From an uncultured delta proteobacterium (GTDB lineage Bacteria > Myxococcota_A > Polyangia > Fen-1088), in contig CAVYGB010000008.1 in assembly GCA_963767925.1 (NCBI GenBank), forward strand, positions 672,001-736,000: a stretch of 64,000 nt of DNA, given 5' to 3'. Each line of letters starts with the position of its first letter. Position 1 is the first letter of the stretch. The notes below the pieces were generated by a model. It saw nothing but the letters and a program-made list of their open reading frames with translations, searched no databases and had not been told where the DNA came from. The position numbers were made by a program, and so were the translations under genes. Positions 408-63,064 of the stretch are shown one piece after another.

Positions 408-1705
408 GCCGGCGCCTGTACCTCAAGCTTTACTTGACGTTTCTGGGGGTGGCGGCCCTGGCCCTCGTCTCGGCCGGGCTGGCGGCCAACCACCTGCGCG
501 AGGGGGGCCCGCCGCACTTTCGCTACGTCGGCGCGCTGGCCCGGGTGGTGCTGCGCGAGCCGCCCGGGCCGCCCCGGGACCTGCGCCCGCGCATCCAGGA
601 GCTGGCCGCCGAGCTGGACCTCGACGTCGCGGTCTGGGACGGCGCGGGCCGGCCCCTGGCCGAGGCCAGCCGGGGCCCCTTTCCCCCGCCCGCCCGCTGG
701 CGGGGCGGCTGGCACCGGGGCGGGACCTTCCTGATCCCGCTCGACGGAGGCCGCTACCTCGGGGTGCGCGAGCGGGGACCGAAGCACAACCCGGGCGGGG
801 TCTTCCTGGGGGTGCTGCTGGTTGTGGCGGCGGTGATGGCGGCGGGCCTCTACCCGCTGTCCCGGGGGATCACCCGGCGGCTCGAGCACCTGGCCGACGG
901 CGCCCGGCGCTGGGCCGGCGGGGACCTGGGCCACCGGGTGAAGATCGAGGGCGACGACGAGGTGGCGGCGGTGGCCAGCCGCTTCAACCAGGCGGCCGCC
1001 GCCATCGAGAGCCTCGTCGATCAGCAACGCCAGATGCTGGCCAACGCCTCGCACGAGCTGCGCTCGCCGCTGGCCCGCCTGCGCCTGGCCTTCGAGCTGT
1101 GCGCCGAGGAGCCCGATCCCGAGCGGCGGCGGGCGCTGGTGGACAAGGCTCACGCCGACATCGTCGACCTCGACGCCCTCGTCGAGGACGTCCTGCTGAC
1201 CGCCCGGGCCCAGCCGGGGGTGGCCCGCCGGCCCTTCGAGGAGGTCGACCTCGAGGCCCTGGTCCGGGCCGAGGCCGAGCGGCTGGGGGCCGAGGTGGTG
1301 GGCCAGGCGACGAAGCTGCCCGGCGATGCCACCATGTTGCGCCACCTCGTGCGCAACCTGCTCGGCAACGCCCACCTCCACGGCGGAGGGGCGGAGGTGC
1401 GGGCTCAGATCGAGCGCCAGGGGCCGACGGTGGTCCTCGCCGTCGAGGATCGGGGGCCGGGCGTGCCGGAGGACGAGCGCGAGAAGATCTTCGCCCCCTT
1501 TTACCGGCCGGCCGGCTCGCGGCAAGGGGGGGTGGGGCTGGGGCTGGCCCTCGTGCGGCAGATCGCCCGCTATCACCAGGGGGAGGTGCGCTACCTGCCC
1601 CGGCCCGGCGGGGGCAGCCGCTTCGAGGTCACCTTGCCGGGCCCGCCGCCTACTGGAGCGCCCGGGCCGGCAGATCGCGAGAGAGGGAGCGGGTCGCGCC
1701 GGTGA
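404..1705 (+). CDS. HAMP-domain sensor histidine kinase
   Basis: GTGA overlap with the regulator stop; two TM segments, HAMP, H-box ASHELRSPL, N-box NLLGNA, G1 DRGPG, G2 GVGLGL. Confidence 0.93.
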   Translation: MSRRLYLKLYLTFLGVAALALVSAGLAANHLREGGPPHFRYVGALARVVLREPPGPPRDLRPRIQELAAELDLDVAVWDGAGRPLAEASRGPFPPPARWRGGWHRGGTFLIPLDGGRYLGVRERGPKHNPGGVFLGVLLVVAAVMAAGLYPLSRGITRRLEHLADGARRWAGGDLGHRVKIEGDDEVAAVASRFNQAAAAIESLVDQQRQMLANASHELRSPLARLRLAFELCAEEPDPERRRALVDKAHADIVDLDALVEDVLLTARAQPGVARRPFEEVDLEALVRAEAERLGAEVVGQATKLPGDATMLRHLVRNLLGNAHLHGGGAEVRAQIERQGPTVVLAVEDRGPGVPEDEREKIFAPFYRPAGSRQGGVGLGLALVRQIARYHQGEVRYLPRPGGGSRFEVTLPGPPPTGAPGPADRERGSGSRR

Positions 1706-4592
1706 GGGCGTCGGCGGTCACCGCCACGTCGGGCTCCTTGCCGCTCAGCGAGCCGTGGCAGCCAGCGCAGATGCCGTCGAACAGGTTGCGGGGCACGCCG
1801 GGCGAGATGGCCTCCCCCGGGCCGAGCTGGTGCTCCTCGCGCATGGTGAAGAGCGGCTGGCGATCGCTGCCCTGCAGCTCCAGGATGAGGGGCCGGCCCG
1901 CCGGCAGCAACACCTTGACCGACCCGTCGGACTCGAGCGGCGCGGCCCCGAGCAGCTCGCGCTGGCTGTAGACCTGCTCGCTGCCGCTCAGCATCGTGGG
2001 ATCGAGGGTGGCCGAGGGGGGCGGGCTGACCGCGTAGACGGCGAGGAAGCGGGCGGCGTCGAACCGGGCGACGTTGCGCCCCCGGCGGAGGTTGGCGTCG
2101 AGCAAGGTGGCGAGGGCGGGCAGATCGGGGAAGTGCACGGTCGCCTCGGCGCCGCCGCCGCTGTCGCCGCCGAACACGAGCTGGGGGACGTTGCGGAACA
2201 GCAACCGCGACGAGCGGCGGTAGCCCAGGGTGGCCTCCACCAGCGACAGCGTCCCACCGGCCAGCAGCTCGCGGCGGGCGCCGGTGATGCCGTCGATCGC
2301 CACCAGGTCGTAGCGGGGCAGGTCGGCGGCCGGGTCGGCCACGTTGCCCGCGAACGAGGCGAGGATGGCCCCGTCGGGCAGGGGGAAGGGGGAGCGGTAG
2401 ACGCCCTGGGTCCCGGCCCGGCCGGTGGCCGCTTCGTCGGGCCGGTGCAGCGAGCGCAGGAAGGTCGTGTCGGTGCGGCCCTCCTCGAAGGGCCCGATCG
2501 AGCGGTTGAACACCGCCAGGGCGCCGCCGCCCCCGCGCGCGCCGGCGTCCGAGAGGATGAGGAGGAAGTTGCGGTCGAGCCCCTCGCGGATCTCGGTGGC
2601 CTGCTGGTAGCCGACCGAGGGCGCCAGGTTGCCGTAGCTGTCGTCGGAGCGGGCGCGCTGGGCCAGCAGGGGGTGGTAGTCGGTCAGGTCCCAGTTCAGG
2701 CGCCGGCCCGAGAGCTGGTAGAAGTCGGGGGAGGCCTTCTCGGTCGTGAACGAGAGCTGCCCGTTCTGCATGAAGGCCGGGCCGATCTCGCTGCCCGAGA
2801 GCACGGTCATCGCCTCGGGCTGGCCGAAGTCCAGGGCCGGGCCGACCCGGTACAGGTCGGCGTTGGGCAGCAGCCGCTTCAGGGTGAGCCCGCCCCGGCG
2901 GGTGGAGGCGTAGACCAGGCTGCCGTCGGGGGCGAAGACCGGATCGAAGTTGTGCACCCGCACCGGGCCGGCCAGGTGGCCGCCGTCTTCGGTCAATCGG
3001 CGGCAGCGGCCGGCGGCCGGCTCGAGCAGCCACAGGTCGAGCCCACCGGCTTGCCCCGGCCGGGCGGCGAACACGAGGCGGCTGCCGTCGTGGCTCCACT
3101 CCGGACCCCGCACGTCGAGGTCGCTGCGGCCAGCCAGGCCGGCGCAGGGGCCGAGGGCGTCGCGCGGGTCGACCACCTGCTCGATGCGCCCGTCGGGGCC
3201 CAGGACCGCGTCGGCCAGGCGGAGCTCGGCCCCGCCCCGGAAGGTGTCGAACTCCAGGGGGCCGTCGGGATCGGCCGGGCGGGCGACGAAGGCCAGCGGC
3301 AGGATCGAGCCGGGCTCCTGGGGCGAGACCAGCGCGGCGTGGTCCAGCCGTTCCAGGCGGTGCCACTCCTTGATCGTGCAGAAGGCGGAGGCGCTGCCCG
3401 GCTCGAAGGGGGTGGGGCAGGGGGCGCGGCTGTCGGCGCCCGGGCCCTCGAGCAGGGCGCCGCCCCGGTGGGTGATGCCGCCGTTGAGGGGAAACAGGTT
3501 CTTTTTCACCAGGCGCGACTGGCGCACGTCCGGCGTGTCGAGGGCCATGAACTCGAGCAGGGCGGTCTCGTAGTTGCGGTGCAGGGCGATGGGCGAGAGG
3601 AAGCCCACCGAGCCGGGCCGCAGCCGGAAGTCGTTGAAGCCGTTGGGGCTGTGACAGGTCTCGAGCGCGCAGCCGCGCTTGATCAGCACCGGCATGACGT
3701 GCTGGCCGAAGAAGGCCTCCCCCGTCGATCGCACCGGCGGGGGCAGGGGCTGGGCCTGCACCTCCTCGGCGAAGGCCTGCAGGAGGCGCCAGCCGTCGGC
3801 CGCCCGGTCGTTGAAGAAGGTGCCGCCGGTGTGGCTGAGCCCGCCGGCCCGGGGCGACAGCGGGCGCAGCAGCAGCTCGCTCTGCTCGGGCCGGTCGGGC
3901 GCCGCGGCCACGAAGCTGGCGGCGCGGGCGAAGTTGGCGTCGAGCTGGGCGTCGGTCTCGCCGCAGGTGAGGAAGAAGTCGGCCTGGGGCGAGCTGTGGC
4001 AGTTGGAGAAGGCGCAGGAGGCGCGCAGCAGCGGCGCCAGGTCGCGGGCGAAGCGCTGGTAGGCGGCGCTGCTCCGATCGACGGCGGGCACGGTGGTGCC
4101 GGGGGGCAGAACCTGGGCGCAGGTGCCGGCCCCCGGGCGGGCGGCCGGCGCCGGGCCGAGGCCGTCGCGGGTGGCCCCCTGGTCCATCCAGCGCTTGAGC
4201 TCGAAGAAGGCGTCGGAGGTGGGCGACAGGGTCTTGAGGCCGACGTGACGGATCTCGCTCGGAAGCAGCCGGCCGTCGTAGGGGATGAGGACGCTCTCTT
4301 CGGGGACCGCCTTCAGCAGCAGCAGGGGCTGGGGGTAGGCGCCGTAGTTGCGCAGGACGTCCCGCCGCCGCTGGACCGCCTCGAACGAGCTGAGATCCAG
4401 GTTGCCGAGCGCCACCCCCGTCGCCTCGTCGATCCGGTGACAGGGGGAGGTGTTGCCCACACAGAAGCCGTTGAAGATGGGCTGGATGTGCTCGTCGTAG
4501 TACCGCCGTTCGGGCGTGGCCTGCTTCTGGCAAGCCACGAGCCCGGCGGCGAGGAGCAGGGTCAGCGGGAGCGGTCGCGTCTGGGAGGTCAC
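1650..4592 (-). CDS. Multiheme cytochrome c / TolB-like beta-propeller lipoprotein with hydrazine synthase alpha-like C-terminal domain
   Basis: Lipobox LVAC; CVGNTSPCH, CAFSNCH, CALETCH and CAGCH motifs; PD40-like repeats (PEWSHDGSRLVFAAR, PVFAPDGSLVYAS); DGSVKVLLPAGRPLILEL resembles the HZS-alpha middle domain. Confidence 0.75.
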   Translation of the reverse strand: MTSQTRPLPLTLLLAAGLVACQKQATPERRYYDEHIQPIFNGFCVGNTSPCHRIDEATGVALGNLDLSSFEAVQRRRDVLRNYGAYPQPLLLLKAVPEESVLIPYDGRLLPSEIRHVGLKTLSPTSDAFFELKRWMDQGATRDGLGPAPAARPGAGTCAQVLPPGTTVPAVDRSSAAYQRFARDLAPLLRASCAFSNCHSSPQADFFLTCGETDAQLDANFARAASFVAAAPDRPEQSELLLRPLSPRAGGLSHTGGTFFNDRAADGWRLLQAFAEEVQAQPLPPPVRSTGEAFFGQHVMPVLIKRGCALETCHSPNGFNDFRLRPGSVGFLSPIALHRNYETALLEFMALDTPDVRQSRLVKKNLFPLNGGITHRGGALLEGPGADSRAPCPTPFEPGSASAFCTIKEWHRLERLDHAALVSPQEPGSILPLAFVARPADPDGPLEFDTFRGGAELRLADAVLGPDGRIEQVVDPRDALGPCAGLAGRSDLDVRGPEWSHDGSRLVFAARPGQAGGLDLWLLEPAAGRCRRLTEDGGHLAGPVRVHNFDPVFAPDGSLVYASTRRGGLTLKRLLPNADLYRVGPALDFGQPEAMTVLSGSEIGPAFMQNGQLSFTTEKASPDFYQLSGRRLNWDLTDYHPLLAQRARSDDSYGNLAPSVGYQQATEIREGLDRNFLLILSDAGARGGGGALAVFNRSIGPFEEGRTDTTFLRSLHRPDEAATGRAGTQGVYRSPFPLPDGAILASFAGNVADPAADLPRYDLVAIDGITGARRELLAGGTLSLVEATLGYRRSSRLLFRNVPQLVFGGDSGGGAEATVHFPDLPALATLLDANLRRGRNVARFDAARFLAVYAVSPPPSATLDPTMLSGSEQVYSQRELLGAAPLESDGSVKVLLPAGRPLILELQGSDRQPLFTMREEHQLGPGEAISPGVPRNLFDGICAGCHGSLSGKEPDVAVTADALTGATRSLSRDLPARALQ

Positions 4593-4602
4593 CGTTGCGA
4601 AC

Positions 4603-5466
4603 CTAGCGGGCGAGGCGGGAGCGGGCGGCGTGGGCCAGCGACCGCACCGACGGGTCGCGGTCGTGGCGGGAGGCGACGTCCAGCGGCTGGCCGGCCTGAC
4701 CGGCGGCCGCCCCGATCTCGCCGAGGGCCCAGGCGGCCTTGCGGCGCACGGCCGGGCTGTCGTCGGTCAGGAGGCGGTCGACAAGGGCCGGCGCCAGGGC
4801 GGCGGCGGGGGTCAGGCCGCGGGTGGCGCCGAGGGTGAAGACGGCCTCCGCCCGCACCTTCTCGTCGCGGTCGCGCAGCAGGGGCAGGGCGGCGGTGGGA
4901 TCGAGCGGCCCCCGCAGGTCGCGCAGGGCCACCAGGGCGGCGGCGCGCACCGACGCCTCGGGGGCGCCGAGCGCCTGGCGCAGGGCCGGCTGGGCGGCCG
5001 GCTCGCCGATGCGGCCCAGGGCCGCGGCCATGGCCCCGCGGGCCTCGGCGTCGAAGATCGGGTTCAGCAGGCCGGCCGACAGGGGCTCGACCGCCCGGGG
5101 GTAGCGCAGGCCGCCCAGCACGTCGGCGGCGTTGCGGGCCTTGATCGAGTCGGGCCGGGCCAGGCGCTTCACCATGTCGATGAACAGCTCCGAGCGCAGG
5201 CCCCGCCGGGCCAGCCACCAGCCGGCCACCCGCCGCACCCGGGCGTCGGCGTGATCGATCAGCGGCCGCACCATGGTCACGCAGGCGCTGCACACCAGGC
5301 GCTCGGCCCGCTCCAGCTCGGCGCTGATGGCGTCGACCGAGGTCGATGCGATGGCCCGCCGGATCGCCTCGGCGCTGGAGCCGCGCCCGGCCCGGGCCGG
5401 GGTGGGCAGCGCGACGAGGAGACCGAGGGCGAGCAGGGCGGGGACGGCAACGTTGCAGTGGCGCAT
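4603..5466 (-). CDS. Exported HEAT-repeat protein with CxxC
   Basis: ATG at 5466 after AAGGAG; signal peptide ending PARA; CSAC motif; repeated VRxxAAxALG helical units. Confidence 0.85.
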   Translation of the reverse strand: MRHCNVAVPALLALGLLVALPTPARAGRGSSAEAIRRAIASTSVDAISAELERAERLVCSACVTMVRPLIDHADARVRRVAGWWLARRGLRSELFIDMVKRLARPDSIKARNAADVLGGLRYPRAVEPLSAGLLNPIFDAEARGAMAAALGRIGEPAAQPALRQALGAPEASVRAAALVALRDLRGPLDPTAALPLLRDRDEKVRAEAVFTLGATRGLTPAAALAPALVDRLLTDDSPAVRRKAAWALGEIGAAAGQAGQPLDVASRHDRDPSVRSLAHAARSRLAR

Positions 5467-5519
5467 GGAGAGCTCCTTCCGGTTCACGGGTGTCGACTGG
5501 GGGTTGGTCGCCGGGCGGG

Positions 5520-7710
5520 TCACGGGGTGGCTCCCTTGTTCTCGCGGAAGAAGTACTGGGCGCCCATGTCGAGGTTGAGGATGATCCGGTAGTACTCGTC
5601 GGCGGTCAGCTCCTGGCCCCCGACGTCGCGGGGGTGGACGGCGCCCTCGAACGCCCGCACGTTCGGGTCGACGGTGGGGAAGCGCTGGGGCGGGTTGAGC
5701 TTCTGGATGAGGGCCGACCGGCGGGCGTGCCCCGGCGTCACGTACGACGGCATCCCCTCGGGGCTGATGATGTCGACGTCGTTCTCCCCGAGCTCCATGT
5801 CCAGCCCCAGCAGCGACACGTACGAGGCGGGGTAGTCGTAGTCCTGGCGTTCCCCCACCGTGAGGGCCACCGGCTGCGCCCGCAGGTCGAAGGTGAAGGT
5901 CTGCATGGTGCCCAGAGTGCTGTCCATGATGGTGTAGCTGCGGTTGCCCGCTTTGCTGGCGTCGCCGTCGTGGCAGCTGACGCACTTGCCGTCGAAGATC
6001 GGCTGGATGGCCAGGTTCCAGGGCACGCCCCGGATGCTGCTCGTAGCCGAAGTCCATCGAGACGCGCTCGGCGCGCGGCACGTCCAGGTTGACCGGGCCC
6101 GAGCTGCGCCGCCATCGGTGCTGCCGGGGGCGATGAGGGTCGGCTTGGCCCGGTCCTCGTGGCAGCCGCCGCAGGTGCGCTGCTCCCCCGGCGCGGCCGC
6201 TGATCCAGACGTCCTCGGTGGCCACCGACGAGGGCGAACTTGTCGATGAGCTGCATGTGCAGGGGGACGTTGGCCGGCACCCGCGCCGAGAAGGAGCCGT
6301 CGCTGTAGACCGGCACCTCGCCGTAGCGAGACTGGCCGTCGAACTCGGTCAGGCCGAACATGTCGGGGAAGCCCTCTTCGGCGGAGAAGCCCTCGAGCAG
6401 GCGCACCTTGGCCACCGAGCCGTGGGGCACGTTCTTGACCAGGCTGCTCTCGTAGACGTTGAGCGCGCTCAGCACGAAGCTCTGATCGGCGCCGGGGGCG
6501 GCGGGCGACTGGGTCACCGGCGGCTCGCGCCGGGCCTTCAGCGGGCGGGCCATCACATCCCAGCGCTCGGGGTCGTCGAACAAGCGGATAGCGGCGGCCG
6601 GTCGCCCCGTCCCACTGGAAGAGGTAAAGACCGAAGTTGGGCTTGGTCTGGGCCATGGCGAGCAGCGACGACTCCACCGGGCCATCGGCCCAGGAGGTCA
6701 GGAACTTCAGGTCCTTCGGATCGCCGATCGGCTCGGCGTCGTAGTAGCGGCCGATGCCGGGATCGGAGGGGATGCGATCACCGGGCACCTGGCGGGTCAT
6801 GTCGGTCACCTCGCGACAGCCGCTCGGCCTCGTGCAGGTCGACGAGCAGCAGCTTGCCGGCCTGCAGGGTGTTGTCGCGCGAGGTCGCCACCGTGACGAC
6901 GCGGAAGGTGTCGCGGCCGGAGGCGCCAGCGAGGGTGTCGACGTGGCGGGCCTTGAGGTAGCTGTTGGTGACCCCCCGCTCCTCGCCGCCGAAGGCCTCC
7001 CGCATGCCGGTCATGTCGGTGTTCATGAGGCGCAGGTGGCCGTCGTTGATGTCGCCCAGGTGACGCCACTCGGTGTACAGGACGTTGCCGTCGGGCAGCA
7101 GGGCGGGGGCCACCCGGTGCGAGACGTTGCGCGGCCCCAGCACCTCGCCGCTGCCGTCGACGTTGATGGTGCCGACCTGGGCGGTGGTCTGGCGCTCGTA
7201 TTCGTCCTGGAACTGCTTGGCGCCCGGCCTCCACCGACTTGGAGGTCGTGAACAGGATGCGTTGCCCGGGCAAGAAGATCGGGTACACGTGGTCGTAGCG
7301 GCCCCTCGGTGATCTGGCGCGGGTTGGACCCGTCGACGTTCAGCAGGAAGAGCTGGTAGTGGGCGTCGTCCTTGCGGCGGGCGGCGATGCACGATGGTGC
7401 CCGCGTCGAAGGAGAGATCCCAGGACATGATGTCGGCCTCGGCGAACATGGGATCGCCGGTCAGCGTGGTGAGGCGCCCGTCGGCCGAGGGGGGCTCCAG
7501 CTTCACGAGGCGCGCGCCGGGCTGGTAGCTCGTGTAGTCGAAGACGTTGCCCACCCCGTCGTTGCGGGCGGCCCGCTGCAGGAAGATGATGGCCCGCACG
7601 TCCTCGGGGATGCCCGGGCTCGACGACTGCGACTCGACCGTACATGAGCTGAGAGACGGCGCGAGGGCGGACAACAACGCGGCGGCCGGCAGAGCGCTTC
7701 TGAGCTTCAT
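5520..7710 (-). CDS. Hydrazine synthase alpha-like diheme lipoprotein, broken by about 10 apparent +1 frameshifts
   Basis: Lipobox LSSC; stitched frames give propeller repeats, [20 protein letters not shown]...[11 protein letters not shown] and [13 protein letters not shown]; no in-frame stops seen in the stitched path. Confidence 0.75.
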
Positions 7711-7722
7711 GCCGGGGGGATG

Positions 7723-7738
7723 TGCAAGGGGGTGGCCA
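7723..7738 (-). promoter_or_regulatory. sigma54 (-24/-12) promoter of the heme-protein operon
   Basis: Minus strand TGGCCACCCCCTTGCA: GG-N10-GC spacing, 12 nt upstream of the ATG at 7710. Confidence 0.7.
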
Positions 7739-7804
7739 GGGTCAGGGGGGCCGCCGGCCGCGGTTTTCCGGGCTCGCCGCCGTCAGCGGGGGCGCGGTAG
7801 CGGG

Positions 7805-7845
7805 GGAGTTGCGCAACTGCCCGATCGCGCCGGTTGCGCAACTCC
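7805..7845. promoter_or_regulatory. Paired palindromic operator/enhancer (GTTGCGCAAC x2)
   Basis: GTTGCGCAAC at 7808-7817 and 7833-7842; GGAGTTGCGCAAC...GTTGCGCAACTCC also forms a larger inverted repeat. Confidence 0.65.
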
Positions 7846-7912: not shown

Positions 7913-9476
7913 ATGAGCGAAACGCGCCGGCTGGGGAAGTATCGACTGGTACGGCGGCTCGCCGTGGGCGGGGTGGCGGAGGTCTACCTGGCGGTGGCCG
8001 AGGGGCTGTCCGGCTTCGAGAAGCGGGTGGTGATCAAGCGGCTCATGCCCGAACACGGGCGGCGATCCGGAGCTGCTCTCGATGTTCCTCGACGAGGCCC
8101 GCCTGATGGCGCTGCTGCACCACCGCCACATCACCGAGGTGTACGACATCGGCGCCGAGGACGGCGAATACTTCTTCGCCCTCGAGCACGTCGACGGCTG
8201 CGACCTGCGCGATCTGCGCGATGGGCGGTCGGGGCAGCCCTTGCCGCTGGCGGCGGCCTTGACGGTGGTGGTGGCGGTGGCCGACGGGCTCGAGCACGCC
8301 CACGGCCAGCGGGGCGAGGACGGCAGCCTGCTGGGGGTCGTCCACCGGGACGTCACCCCCTCCAACGTGCTGTGCGGGCGCGGCGGTGAGGTCAAGCTGG
8401 CCGACTTCGGGGTGGCCAAGTGGACCGCCCAGCGCAGCCGCACCGAGCAGGGGACGATCAAGGGCAAGTTCGCCTACATGTCCCCCGAGCAGTGCCGGGC
8501 CGAGCCTCTCGATCGCCGGAGCGACGTCTTCGCCCTCGGCGTGATCCTCCACGAGCTGACCACCGGGTCCAAGCCGTTCGCGGGGGAGAGCGAGTTCGAG
8601 GTGCTGACCGCCATCGTCGCGGGCCGCAGCATCCCCCCCTCGCGGACGCGCCCGGGCTATCCGCCGGCCCTGGAGGTGGTGGTGGCCCGGGCGCTGAGCA
8701 CCGACCGGGCCGGCCGGTTCGCGACCGCTGGCGAGCTGCGCGACGCCTTGATCGAGACGGGCGCGGCGCTGGGGCTGACCCTCGGACCGGCGGCGGTGGC
8801 CGACATGGTCCAGTCCCGCGTCGCCGAGATGGAGAGATCCCGGACCGAGGAGCCACGTCCCGCACCGCTCGACCGCGGTCGCACCGCCACCGACCGGGCG
8901 GCCGCCCCCCGCCCATCGCCGGGCCCCGACCCGACTGCCGTGGCAACGCTCCGCCCATCGCCGGGCCCCGACCCGGCCGCCGAGCCGACCACCCGCCACC
9001 CGATCGCCCGGGCGGCCGCCGCCCTGGCGCTCGTCGCGCTGGTCGGCTTTGCGATCGGAGTCCGGCGACAACCGCCGCCGTCCGAACCGCCCTTCGCCCG
9101 TCAGCTCCCGACCGCGAGCGCGATCACCCCACCGACCGGCAGGACCCTGGCCGCAGGCACCGGCGAACGCGCCGTGGAGGCCGCCCCCTCCACCGGCACC
9201 GTGCGGCCGGCACCGCCACCCGCCGCGCCGCCCTCGCGAGCGATCGCCAGCGGCGTGGTAGAGCCGTCGAAGCCACCCAGCCTCGGCCCCCCGGCGATTG
9301 CCAAGCAGGGCGGCGCCTTGGATCGGGTCGCCAAGCAGGGCGGCGCCACCGATCGGCCGAAGTCGGTCGGCACCCGGCTCCCCAGCAAGAAGTTAGGCAA
9401 CCGCCTCGCCAGACCCGCCAAGCCCGCCGCCCCCGCCCTGCAGATCTGGGATCCCGACTCGGCGATCCTGCCCTAG
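7913..9476 (+). CDS. Membrane Ser/Thr protein kinase, one frameshift near 8057
   Basis: [33 protein letters not shown] helix; Pro-rich tail ending WDPDSAILP. Confidence 0.9.
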
Positions 9477-9742: not shown

Positions 9743-10504
9743 GTGCAGACTCCGCCCAGCTCGCGTGCGCGGCCGCCCTGGCGGGCGGTCGCGGTCGCGG
9801 CGGTGGTCGCGCTGCTGACCTGCGGCCCTCCGCTTGCGGCCCGGGCCTCCGAGCCGGCGACCACCGGGACCGCCGAGGAGCTGTACGAGCTCGGGATGGC
9901 GCACTTTCGCGCGCGGGGGTTCAGCGAGGCGGCCCGCGCGTTCGAGGCGGCGCTGGCCCTCGATCCCCGCCCGGAGATCCTGTTCGCCCTGGCCCAGGCC
10001 ACCCGGCTCTCGGGCGATTGCCCGGCGGCGCGGCCCCTCTACCAGCGGTTCCTGGCCACCGAGCCTCCGCCTCATCAGGTCGAGGCGACCCGGATCGCGC
10101 TCGCCCGCTGCGAGGGCAGAGCGCCGCCCCCCGGACCGGTTGTCGCTCCCCTCCCCGCGCCGCCCGCCGTGCAGGCCGCCGCCGTGCCCCGGCAGCCGCA
10201 GGCGCGGTGGTGGGCCGATCCGCTGGGCGGCGCGCTGGCCGGGGCAGCGGTCCTGAGCCTCGGCGCCGGGGTGGGGCTGCTGGTCGCCGCCCGGCTGGCC
10301 GACGGGGAGCACCGGGAGGCGCTCGCCTACCCGCGCGCGAACGAGCGGCGGGCGGCGGCGCAGAACCGCCAGCGCTGGGCCGCAGTGGCCCTGCTCTCCG
10401 GCGCGGCGCTGGGGGTGGGGGCCGCGGGGCGCTGGTGGTGGCTGGGCGGGTCGGCCGGCGGGCCCGCCGGGCGGGCGGCGCTGGCGCTGGGGGGACGTTT
10501 TTGA
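9743..10504 (+). CDS. Exported TPR-domain protein with C-terminal hydrophobic segments
   Basis: Signal peptide; TPR pair (LYELGMAHF...AARAFEAALALDP; LFALAQATRLSGDC...YQRFL); Pro linker; two hydrophobic helices; ends GGRF. Confidence 0.75.
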   Translation: MQTPPSSRARPPWRAVAVAAVVALLTCGPPLAARASEPATTGTAEELYELGMAHFRARGFSEAARAFEAALALDPRPEILFALAQATRLSGDCPAARPLYQRFLATEPPPHQVEATRIALARCEGRAPPPGPVVAPLPAPPAVQAAAVPRQPQARWWADPLGGALAGAAVLSLGAGVGLLVAARLADGEHREALAYPRANERRAAAQNRQRWAAVALLSGAALGVGAAGRWWWLGGSAGGPAGRAALALGGRF

Positions 10505-10542: not shown

Positions 10543-12974
10543 GTGCATGCGGGCCAGCCCGTCCGAGCTCGCGTCGTCCTCCGCCACCCGACAGCCGCCG
10601 GCCGACCCGACGCCGGCTGGCCCCCGCTGATCCTCGGACTCGCGCTCCTGGCGCTCGGCACCGGCTGCCTCGCGCGTGGTCGCTTCCGCTGCGAGGTGGA
10701 CAGTCAGTGCCAGCTCGACGGCCGGACCGGCTTCTGCGAGCCGAGCGGGGTGTGCAGCTTCCTCGACGCCACCTGCCCGCTCGGGCGGCGGCACGCCAAT
10801 CTGGCCGACGAGGCGGGCGTCCTGGCCGGCCGCTGCCTGGAGGCCTCCCCCTGCGGGCAGACGCCGGTCGTCGAGGTGGAGGTGGGGGGGAACACGCCTG
10901 CCTGCGGCGGCTCGACGGGGCCGTCGCCTGCTGGGGGCGAAACAGCGACGGGCAGGTCGGGGACGGCACCCGGAGGGCGCGGGCCCGGCCGACCCCGGTG
11001 GCGGCGTTGCCCCCGGTGGGAGCCCTCGCGCTCGGGCAGGCCCACACCTGCGCCATCGCCGGGGAGGCTGGGCAGGTGCTCTGCTGGGGGCGCAACGACG
11101 AGGGGCAGCTCGGGCTGGCGGGGGGCGGATCGGAGGTGGTGCCCGCCGCTGTCCCCGGCCTGCTGGGCGCCAGCGAGCTGGCGCTCGGGCGCGGCTTCTC
11201 CTGTGCCCGCGCCGCCGACGGTGTCTCGTGCTGGGGGGCGGGCGGCGAGGGGCAGCTCGGGCGGGGCGACACAACCGGCAGCGCGGCGCCGGCGCTGGTG
11301 TCCGATCTGGCCGGGGTGGACCAGGTCGTGGCGGGGAACGCCCACGCCTGCGCCCGGCTGCGCGACGGCGGGGTGGCCTGCTGGGGCGCCGGCGCGCAGG
11401 GACAGCTCGGGCTGGGCGACACCTCCGCCCGCCCGCGCCCCCAGCGCATCGCCGGGCTGGGGGAGGTGGTCGAGCTGGCGGCCGGCGCGGCCCACACCTG
11501 CGCCCGCCGGAGCGACGGGACGGTCTCCTGCTGGGGCGAGAACCGGGCCGGCCAGCTCGGGGACGCCACCCTGCTGCGGCGGCTGTCCCCCACCCGCATC
11601 CCGTTGCCCGGGCCCGCGCGCAAGCTGCGCGCCGGCGCCCAGCACACCTGCGTGCTGGGCCCGCTCGAGCGGGTCTCCTGCTGGGGCGAAAATCAGCGCG
11701 GCCAGCTCGGCGACGGCAGCACCATCGCCTATCCCAGCGCGGTCGCCACCGTCGGCGTCCACGACGTGCTGGATCTCGCCGCCGGCGGGGACGTCACCTG
11801 CGCCCTGGGACGGGATGGCGCCGTGTCGTGCTGGGGCGACGATCGCTGGGGGCAGCTCGGCGCGGGCAGCCTCACCTGGCGGGGCCAGCCGGGCCCGCTG
11901 GCGGTGCTCGATCAGGTGACCTCGGTGTCGGCGGGGGAGAGCCACACCTGCGCGACCCGGGCCAGCGCCGAGGCGTTTTGCTGGGGCGGGGGCCAGTTCG
12001 GCCGGCTCGGCGATGGCGCCGACGTCGATCGCTCCACGCCCGCGCTGGTGCGGCTGCCCGGCGGCCTGCTCGACGTCGTCGCCGGCGGCGCCCACGCCTG
12101 CGGGCGCACCCTCGATCGCCGGCTCTGGTGCTGGGGCCTCAACCTCGAGGGCCAGCTCGGCGCCGGCTACGGCGGGAGCGAGGTCCCGCAGCGGCTCGCC
12201 CCGGTGCCGGTCCCCGGCCTGGAGGCGGTCGACCAGGTCGCGCTCGGGCGGGCCCACGGGTGCGCCCGCGCGCGCGGGCGGGTGCTGTGCTGGGGCGCCA
12301 ACCCGTTCGGGCAGACCGGCGAAGCCACCGCCGCGCAGAGCCTGCAGCCGTTCGGCGTGGCCGGCCTGGAGGCGGTCGCCGGGATCGCGGCGGGCGCCGA
12401 CCATAGCTGCGCGCTCGGCGAGCAGGGTCGGGCCTGGTGCTGGGGCCGCGGCGACCTAGGTCAGCTCGGCGACGGCACCGCCACCTCGAGCAGCCGCCCG
12501 CTGGTGGTGGCCCTGCCGGCGGACGTGCCGGTTGTCGAGCTGGCGGCGGGGGTGGCCCACACCTGCGCGCGCCTGCGCGACGGCCGGGTGTTCTGCTGGG
12601 GCGCCGGCCCCGCCCAGCCTGGCCCGGCGGCCCCGCTACAGGCGCGGCCCGCCGCCGTCGCGGGCGTCGCCGGCGCCACCCTCCTGGCCGCCGGCGGCGG
12701 GCACACCTGCGCGGCCACGGCCGATCGGCGGCTGACCTGCTGGGGCGCCGGCGAGCTCGGTCAGAGCGGACCGGACGGCGATCCCGGGCAGCCCCTGCGC
12801 ACCGTGGAGGCGCCTGCCGCCCTCATCGGGCTCGGCGCCGGCGGCGCCCACACCTGCACCGTCGACGCGTCCCGCGCCCTCCGCTGCTTCGGCCTGGACG
12901 CCAGCGGCCAGCTCGGCACTGGCCGGGCGCTCCAGTCTTCCTGGCCCCGCCCGGTCGCCGTGCCTTGCCCGTGA
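10543..12974 (+). CDS. RCC1-repeat lipoprotein with N-terminal Cys-rich domain, frameshift in the G-run at about 10884-10890; start uncertain (10501 or 10543)
   Basis: Lipobox GTGC and Cys-rich FRCEVDSQC...CEPSGVCSF in one frame, followed by many HTCA...CWG.N..GQLG repeats in the next frame. Confidence 0.85.

Positions 12975-60273: not shown

Positions 60274-63064
<2,791 letters not shown>

Follow-up and report, generated by a model that had tools for sequence, protein, structure and literature searches.

Relation of the triplet to hydrazine synthase

To our knowledge, hydrazine synthase (HZS) was long believed to be an enzyme without relatives. Homologues of its alpha subunit (HzsA) outside anammox bacteria have by now been published. 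In the available parts of the work by Hagglund et al. (Genome Biol Evol 2025, PMC12758564), non-anammox homologues from other phyla are grouped into clades I-IV, lack Tyr591, have a canonical haem pocket and are of unknown function; they were chosen for co-location with a fused beta-gamma homologue and, in clades I-III, an FG-GAP protein. Divergent HzsA proteins from cold-seep metagenome-assembled genomes (MAGs) of ten phyla beyond Planctomycetota were read, as far as the available text of that study goes, as potential anammox genes (Nat Commun 2025, PMC11828985). Here we describe a triplet of genes located in a 64,000-nucleotide (nt) stretch of myxobacterial DNA (assembly GCA_963767925.1, contig CAVYGB010000008.1, positions 672,001 to 736,000; the whole stretch is referred to as the window), which encodes two HZS-alpha-like lipoproteins (genes 1 and 3) and, between them, an exported HEAT-repeat protein. 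We consider it reasonably probable that the triplet is a conserved sigma-54-driven operon of Polyangia, whose products form an exported, lipid-anchored haem-protein module of HZS-alpha stock and not a hydrazine synthase.

The G+C content of the window is ~75%, and for this reason the true frames were picked with a plot of third-position G+C. The open reading frame (ORF) calls place the three genes head-to-tail on the minus strand, in the order gene 3, HEAT gene and gene 1 (Table 1), with intergenic gaps of 53 nt between gene 3 and the HEAT gene and of 10 nt between the HEAT gene and gene 1; in the relatives, neighbouring genes of the triplet are 2-9 nt apart or share 4 nt. The close, co-directional arrangement proposed in a first-pass annotation of this DNA was borne out. 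Synteny across relatives, which that annotation had named as a check, holds beyond chance: the order gene 3-HEAT-gene 1 is kept in 10/10 fetched relative loci, and also in all 60 of the 60 related loci in which the sequence upstream of gene 1 is 3400 nt or longer.

Gene 3 has all three domains of HzsA. Its product is built of a lipobox, a six-bladed propeller, a middle domain of the HZS_alpha family (PF18582) harboring a CGGCH motif, and a C-terminal cytochrome c domain with a CVSCH motif. Both CXXCH sites (C502, C505 and H506 in the middle domain) and the lipobox Cys are invariant in an alignment of 44 sequences (A1). The window copy, of which only a piece is read in one frame, reaches 25.3 bits with PF18582 by hmmscan, just below the gathering cut-off of 26.6, the intact orthologue P0124 scores 52.4 bits, and all 120 listed relatives of gene 3 carry the domain; in a six-frame search of the genome, the two window copies are the only matches, and both (28.2 and 27.5 bits) exceed the cut-off. 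Among solved structures, P0124 alone matches 5C2V_A, the HzsA of Kuenenia stuttgartiensis, at E 1.7e-8, and the profile of the 44-sequence family does so at E 7.1e-19, in five collinear stretches spanning chain residues 22-767. The AlphaFold model of P0124 (predicted local distance difference test, pLDDT, 82.9) retrieves the same chain in Foldseek at E 1.4e-28, with template modelling (TM) scores of 0.64/0.60, the next match being TolB at 1.1e-9. Hence the HZS-alpha match suggested by the first-pass annotation is found by profile as well as by structure, and gene 3 shows the same three-domain build, collinear over the whole chain. The invariant H678 of P0124 lies five residues before the column aligned to chain His745 (His772, the distal ligand of haem alpha-II).

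Gene 1 has a propeller and a middle domain of this type too, preceded by an N-terminal module of three domains. Its PD40 propeller (E 2.9e-8) is followed by an HZS-alpha-type middle domain ending in CAGCH, and the C-terminal cytochrome domain is absent, the protein ending after the middle-domain CXXCH. The window copy scores 24.3 bits with HZS_alpha by hmmscan, again just below the cut-off, and the middle-domain C942, C945 and H946, together with the lipobox Cys, are invariant in a second 44-sequence alignment (A2). The gene 1 model (pLDDT 75.6) matches 5C2V_A in Foldseek at E 1.1e-19 over 623 columns, followed by TolB at 5e-10. When compared with each other, the gene 1 and gene 3 families align over 455 columns, from the start of the propeller to the middle-domain CXXCH (hhalign 96.4%, E 1.1e-9), and by this profile comparison they are paralogues, as had been proposed. 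Both carry the lipobox that had been seen in them (LVAC in gene 1, LSSC in gene 3), with no Lys at position +2 in either lipoprotein, and the propeller repeats, CxxCH and additional haem-like motifs could all be located. Likeness to TolB concerns the six-bladed PD40 propeller (VIA-align Z 23.1, root-mean-square deviation 3.5, 264 residues aligned); however, the TolB model TIGR02800 gives only 18.7 bits against a cut-off of 343, and TolB itself has no haem domains. PF26549 is listed for some gene 1 relatives.

Concerning HZS itself, the available portions of two papers state that the proximal ligand of haem alpha-I is Tyr591, four residues after the motif His, which binds zinc (PMC12607021, PMC12758564). 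The middle domain ends in the CXXCH of haem alpha-I in both families of the triplet, but in the family alignments the equivalent of Tyr591 is absent: the CSGCHYGSY of HZS corresponds to a variable position in gene 3 and to a Ser in gene 1 (CGGCHGSISG). The other zinc-site residue, Cys303 (with His587), is, according to the parts of the paper at hand, kept neither in other HZS-alpha homologues nor in all anammox bacteria (PMC12758564), and its region is left out of the profile alignment to 5C2V_A. The NCBIfam equivalog of the alpha subunit, NF052339, has a cut-off of 800 bits, far above the 84.7 of P0124 and the 19.1 of P0001, the gene 1 protein of the window. No beta or gamma partner gene is adjacent to the triplet, as the first-pass annotation had it: the flanking genes encode a histidine kinase with a response regulator, and a Ser/Thr kinase, and the five CCP_MauG matches of the genome are all distant, the nearest ~626 kb away. 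Since the tyrosine is missing, the equivalog scores far below its cut-off and adjacent beta and gamma genes are lacking, we take the triplet not to be a hydrazine synthase, and almost certainly it does not make hydrazine. Sequence identity with HzsA is ~18% for the gene 3 orthologue and ~13% for gene 1, and the systems further differ in that both large proteins are lipoproteins, in that the HEAT protein and a second paralogue replace beta and gamma, and in the myxobacterial host.

With clades I-IV the triplet shares that its proteins are distant HZS-alpha homologues outside anammox bacteria, with a canonical haem pocket and without Tyr591, going by the available text (PMC12758564); neither the fused beta-gamma homologue nor the FG-GAP protein was found in the window or in the 10 fetched relative loci. 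Myxococcota and Polyangia are absent from the main text of that paper, whose supplementary tables may list such hits. The cold-seep proteins are likewise HZS_alpha-domain proteins outside Brocadiales, found by sequence and structure, but Myxococcota is not among the phyla named in the available text (its supplement may add hits), and an anammox reading is unsupported for the Polyangia family (PMC11828985). A literature search on HZS_alpha proteins and on hydrazine synthase in Myxococcota found no description of the triplet, although paper supplements may list hits.

The N-terminal module of gene 1 and the HEAT protein

Residues 26-425 of gene 1 match no Pfam family at E up to 10. They comprise three repeats, none of which has a canonical CXXCH; instead, a CX6CH and two CX4CH motifs are found, with the invariant Cys-Xn-Cys-His residues C44/C51/H52, C193/C198/H199 and C308/C313/H314 in alignment A2, each followed 55-64 residues later by a second invariant His (H116, H254 and H375). 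Among the 71 orthologues whose N-terminus is present (three of these are truncated or over-extended), the spacers along the protein, middle domain included, follow the pattern 6,4,4,2 in 62 and 8,4,4,2 in six, all of the latter being of Nannocystaceae type. Repeats 2 and 3 align with each other (hhalign 96.4%), and in the alignment of repeat 1 to the cytochrome domain at the end of gene 3 (80.5%, E 1.3e-5) CX6CH falls on CXXCH. The drops of pLDDT under 50 in the gene 1 model coincide exactly with the loops that hold the motifs and the His residues, as one would expect if the model lacks a cofactor. Taken together, these features suggest that the repeats are diverged cytochrome c domains of the alpha-II type with a widened, putative haem site.

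With the module profile, 1128 cluster representatives are retrieved at an E threshold of 0.001, of which 382 remain at 1e-10. Some of these relatives combine CXnCH repeats, propeller, HZS_alpha domain and C-terminal cytochrome domain (P0451, P0456, P0461 and P0418), and P0451 has a CX4CH at the alpha-II position; others have five repeats, no Pfam family and spacers of 4, 5 and 7 (P0434 and P0437). A search for shorter relatives gave 105 matches, seemingly fragments of the same family and none informatively named. A protein atlas gave cytochrome c, PSCyt1 and Paired_CXXCH, at 0.90-0.91, as leads only, while the Foldseek and VIA-align searches with the whole 980-residue model are dominated by propeller matches. 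Haem c sites with extended spacers are on record as CX3CH, CX4CH, CX11CH, CX15CH and CX17CH in the available part of a recent paper (PMC11492766). The gene 1 family resembles them in that a His follows a pair of Cys whose spacing is widened and varies, and differs in that spacers of 6 or 8 residues, and those of 5 or 7 seen in relatives, are outside that list. Genes for cytochrome c assembly are present in the genome.

The HEAT protein between the two large genes carries CSAC in its first repeat, behind a signal peptide that ends ARA|GRG, and matches HEAT_2 at E 7.1e-28 and HEAT_PBS at 1.7e-10, in agreement with the earlier description of an exported HEAT protein with CSAC. A Cys pair is present in 63 of the 65 extracted orthologues, as CX2C in 58 and as CX3C in five (L070, L072, L073, L076 and L085); of the remaining two, L062 is truncated and the other, without CX2C, was not inspected. 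C59 and C62 are invariant in alignment A3. The HEAT_PBS repeats are shared with bilin lyases of the E/F type and with NblB, whose models give weak matches (NblB 39.7 bits, CpeY 27 and CpcE 20.9), but these scores are far below the respective equivalog cut-offs of 300, 600 and 330; moreover, the HEAT protein is exported, has the Cys pair and occurs away from any phycobiliprotein context. Co-folding of gene 1 residues 22-425 with the mature HEAT protein gave a score of 0.25 and a mark of 0.32, which says nothing for or against contact.

Conservation, promoter and frameshifts of the triplet

A relative of gene 1 is encoded in 238 of the 279 candidate stretches obtained in a search of genome contigs, and the best 80 of those gene 1 stretches are all from MAGs. 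Their titles name Polyangia, Myxococcales, Kofleriaceae, Nannocystaceae, Haliangium, Haliangiales or broader proteobacterial groups. One contig (L053, 3234 nt), titled Vicinamibacterales (Acidobacteriota), is the only non-myxobacterial one among these 80, and because it is so short the title is probably a binning error. The HEAT gene is present in 66/66 related loci with at least 1000 nt of flank, and the C-terminus of gene 3 in 23 of 41 related genomes (the genome of the window, G000, included), with 19/24 in the window's own family. Intact gene 3 frames of relatives encode 724-972 amino acids (aa), with the exception of one 395-aa frame in a genome that is 70% complete. In an even sample of the phylum, the gene 1 profile finds matches at E up to 1e-50 in 28 of 301 genomes (again counting G000); the full-length ones all belong to the same class, and the two outside it are partial and near E 1e-51. 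Across the sampled genomes, the family is confined to a single class of Myxococcota. Two gene 1 profile matches were seen in each of G031, G142, G162, G226, G310 and G335, both copies being full-length except in G142, where the second is partial (query 180-614).

The surroundings of the triplet vary. In loci of the Haliangiales/Nannocystaceae type (L017, L018 and L019) it lies between mutS and a gene for a secreted protein of 330-360 aa without Pfam family; in the present genome, mutS, a DUF882-like gene, the gene for that secreted protein and holA stand together ~480 kb away from the triplet (L102, G000:C8:1157120-1161049). The triplet has thus changed its genomic place between clades. The gene for the secreted protein, which follows gene 1 in the Haliangiales/Nannocystaceae loci, had been considered as a fourth member of the operon and was rejected, given that its homologue here is found beside mutS and holA.

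Control by sigma-54, also part of the first-pass annotation, was upheld by the comparison of loci. Twelve bases separate the last base of the -24/-12-type element TGGCCACCCCCTTGCA from the ATG of gene 3, or 13 if the count begins after the C of its -12 GC. A similar element is found upstream of gene 3 in 9/11 loci, and a looser pattern in 42 of 59 loci, as compared with 319 of 6540 (4.9%) equal-sized background windows; it is this recurrence across relatives that makes the site convincing. The genome encodes rpoN and has 68 Sigma54_activat matches. In ten sequences, the window included, the end of the motif is 12-13 nt from the start codon, and an mRNA with no leader or almost none would result; in a different sub-clade, ~30 nt separate the motif from the start and a GGAG-type ribosome-binding site is present. 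Further upstream, two copies of the palindrome GTTGCGCAAC start at 7808 and 7833, the sole exact copies in the window. Sites of this type occur upstream of gene 3 in 33/59 related loci, all in the clade in which the triplet is linked to a divergent kinase gene, and the pair may serve as binding sites of an enhancer-binding protein. A Ser/Thr kinase gene is located divergently upstream in 31 of the best 80 loci (L023 to L071), and its product is a possible regulatory partner of the operon. In the window, its Pkinase match starts at profile position 46, in the frame at 8082, with the N-terminal stretch in another frame; the split near 8080 looks like the same kind of indel error as in gene 3. 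The second -24/-12 match of the window, TGGCGGTACTGTTGCA, is far from the triplet (Table 1).

Gene 3 is read in five reading-frame pieces in the window. Frameshift-aware alignment of the intact same-genus orthologue L003 with the minus strand requires nine shifts, eight of one surplus base and one of two, at positions 7389, 7298, 7225, 6813, 6584, 6229, 6192, 6106 and 6036, mostly outside homopolymers; along this alignment 570/654 residues are identical and there are no in-frame stops. Short-read contigs of public soil metagenomes, nearly identical to the stretch, are without the surplus base at 6812 (a 196-nt contig with one other differing letter), 6814 and 6588, although the matching runs cover only small shares of the stretch (0.05-0.09). 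The kinase gene, rpoN and several genes of enhancer-binding proteins are likewise split across frames in this genome, the DNA-binding domain of rpoN over two overlapping frames (G000:C8:278763-279240, L103/L104), and the assembly consists of 13 contigs with a completeness of 83.8%. Given the contigs without the surplus bases, the exclusive presence of surplus bases, the other split genes and the low completeness, the shifts most likely stem from consensus errors in an assembly rich in indels, and such errors throughout may also account for the completeness value. In run X2, contigs join across 115 bases (window 6078-6194) and across 82 bases (7216-7299), with short sides of 24 and 21; these joints possibly come from relatives or from misassembly.

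Proposed mechanism, alternatives and neighbouring features

Sequence comparison establishes the homology, the operon and the conservation of its promoter, and from these we infer the rest (export and loading with haem, assembly of a complex, flow of electrons and catalysis) as follows. Transcription would start from the -24/-12 element, here practically at the ATG, and would be activated by an enhancer-binding protein that occupies both GTTGCGCAAC dyads, with the divergent Ser/Thr kinase possibly in control. The products of genes 1 and 3 would be exported by Sec and lipidated, and haem would then be attached by the cytochrome c maturation system of the host. The two middle-domain haems, placed between propeller and middle domain as haem alpha-I is in HZS and presumably with ordinary His ligation instead of Tyr, would act on a small substrate, and electrons would pass to or from them through the three N-terminal domains of gene 1 and the one at the C-terminus of gene 3. 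The HEAT protein may be a structural partner or a maturation helper.

It should be noted that several observations weigh against this reading. The match between repeat 1 and the cytochrome domain is modest, and repeat 1 matches repeats 2 and 3 weakly (23% and 3%); a literature search on haem sites from CX5CH to CX8CH found no paper; and, the periplasm being oxidising, Cys pairs located there could form disulfides. Concerning the promoter, the -24/-12 pattern was missed in 17/59 loci, the window alone has 2 matches with 0.79 expected, so that a single site is weak without comparative data, and no gene of an enhancer-binding protein lies in the window (0 of the 68 Sigma54_activat matches). As to gene 3, independent contigs cover only 2 of the 9 frameshift sites, and all nine fall within 1.4 kb, with none in the 2.9 kb of gene 1.

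The alternatives differ in which part of the argument they touch. The widened motifs of gene 1 might hold no haem but disulfides or a metal site, leaving gene 1 a single-haem protein; spacers of 5 to 8 residues are without precedent in the search just mentioned, the module matches no Pfam cytochrome family and disulfides are chemically plausible, and still we regard this as rather doubtful, since each of the three repeats has an invariant His right behind its second Cys and another one further on, the module aligns with a canonical cytochrome domain, and a CX4CH occupies the alpha-II site in relatives. Furthermore, the spacer shifts from 6 to 8 while the Cys and the Cys-His stay fixed, which is the pattern of the known CX4CH, CX11CH, CX15CH and CX17CH sites (PMC11492766, available part). 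Going beyond the reading favoured here, the HEAT protein, with its invariant Cys pair, could be a relative of bilin lyases dedicated to holding or attaching haem at the three widened sites of gene 1 in the periplasm, as part of a six-haem lipoprotein enzyme. Bilin lyases make thioethers between Cys and vinyl groups. This proposal is quite improbable in our judgement; if it were true, CX4CH, CX6CH/CX8CH (and CX5CH and CX7CH in relatives) would be a new class of haem sites, and the triplet a soil-myxobacterial enzyme with new chemistry.

The remaining alternatives concern the function of the whole module. To HZS-like nitrogen chemistry at the middle-domain haem, be it the condensation of hydroxylamine with ammonia or another formation of an N-N bond, we give practically no credence: the proteins do retain the general fold of HZS-alpha with its order of domains, and the haem alpha-I CXXCH is invariant, but the proximal tyrosine is gone, the hydrazine_alpha equivalog stays at the scores given above, no beta or gamma partner is adjacent, and the same negative conclusion was drawn for other non-anammox homologues in the available parts of PMC12758564. 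A non-enzymatic module, acting as an electron conduit of the envelope or as a redox sensor read by the neighbouring Ser/Thr kinase, would agree with the many putative electron-transfer haem sites, with the lipid anchors of both large proteins and with the divergent kinase, all of whose 31 loci belong to this clade. It is unlikely in view of the Haliangiales/Nannocystaceae clade, where the kinase is unlinked and the triplet stands beside mutS, and in view of the very strong conservation of propeller and middle domain, where columns average 51% and 56% identity and numerous charged and His residues are invariant; such conservation fits an active site better than a wire. Finally, gene 3 might be a true pseudogene here and the local system be decaying. 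The clustering of the shifts, with none in gene 1 or the HEAT gene, and the lower G+C of the shifted region (~0.70 against 0.75) would fit, but the probability of decay is small, as all shifts are surplus bases without any in-frame stop, the residues largely match those of the same-genus orthologue, the surplus base is missing from independent contigs at both covered sites, other genes of the window and genome are split alike, and the frames are intact in relatives.

The operon shows that aerobic soil myxobacteria of a whole class carry two diverged HZS-alpha copies under tight selection and, probably, dedicated sigma-54 control. As it lacks beta and gamma subunits, it is also a simpler setting in which to study the function of the ancestral propeller-haem module. 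It also calls for caution, in that HZS_alpha-domain genes in metagenomes should not be read as anammox markers. The cytochrome-like domain with widened CXnCH, so far uncatalogued, would extend the known attachment sites of haem c if haem binding is confirmed.

Table 1. Positions of the triplet, its motifs and neighbouring features in the window.
Feature	Position	Strand	Basis
Gene 3, HZS-alpha-like dihaem lipoprotein, ~730 aa read through breaks; ATG at 7710 (MKLRS...), stop at 5520	5520..7710	-	PF18582 and 5C2V_A matches
Lipobox LSSC of gene 3	7642-7653	-	invariant Cys
CGGCH, middle domain of gene 3	6159-6173	-	invariant site
CVSCH, C-terminal domain of gene 3	5970-5984	-	invariant site
Exported HEAT-repeat protein, 287 aa	4603..5466	-	HEAT_2, signal peptide, CSAC
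CSAC of the HEAT protein	5281-5292	-	invariant Cys pair
Gene 1, 980-aa lipoprotein, intact ORF	1650..4592	-	PD40, HZS-alpha-type middle domain
Lipobox LVAC of gene 1	4530-4541	-	invariant Cys
Gene 1 N-terminal module, residues 26-425, three cytochrome-like domains	3318..4517	-	invariant CXnCH motifs
CX6CH, repeat 1	4437-4463	-	invariant Cys and His
CX4CH, repeat 2	3996-4016	-	invariant Cys and His
CX4CH, repeat 3	3651-3671	-	invariant Cys and His
CAGCH, middle domain of gene 1	1755-1769	-	invariant site
Sigma-54-type -24/-12 element TGGCCACCCCCTTGCA	7723..7738	-	pattern match and conservation upstream of gene 3
Two exact palindromes GTTGCGCAAC, candidate enhancer-binding-protein sites	7808-7817, 7833-7842		conservation
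Divergent Ser/Thr protein kinase gene, frameshift near 8080	7916..9476	+	Pkinase E 1e-29
Second -24/-12 match TGGCGGTACTGTTGCA	62955-62970	-	pattern match
TPR piece	9743-10504	+	coding signal
RCC1-repeat protein	10707-12974	+	coding signal

Beyond the kinase gene, between 9743 and 12974 on the plus strand, the coding signal crosses three frames, from the TPR piece through another piece to the RCC1-repeat protein, and this stretch represents either one frameshifted gene or separate genes.

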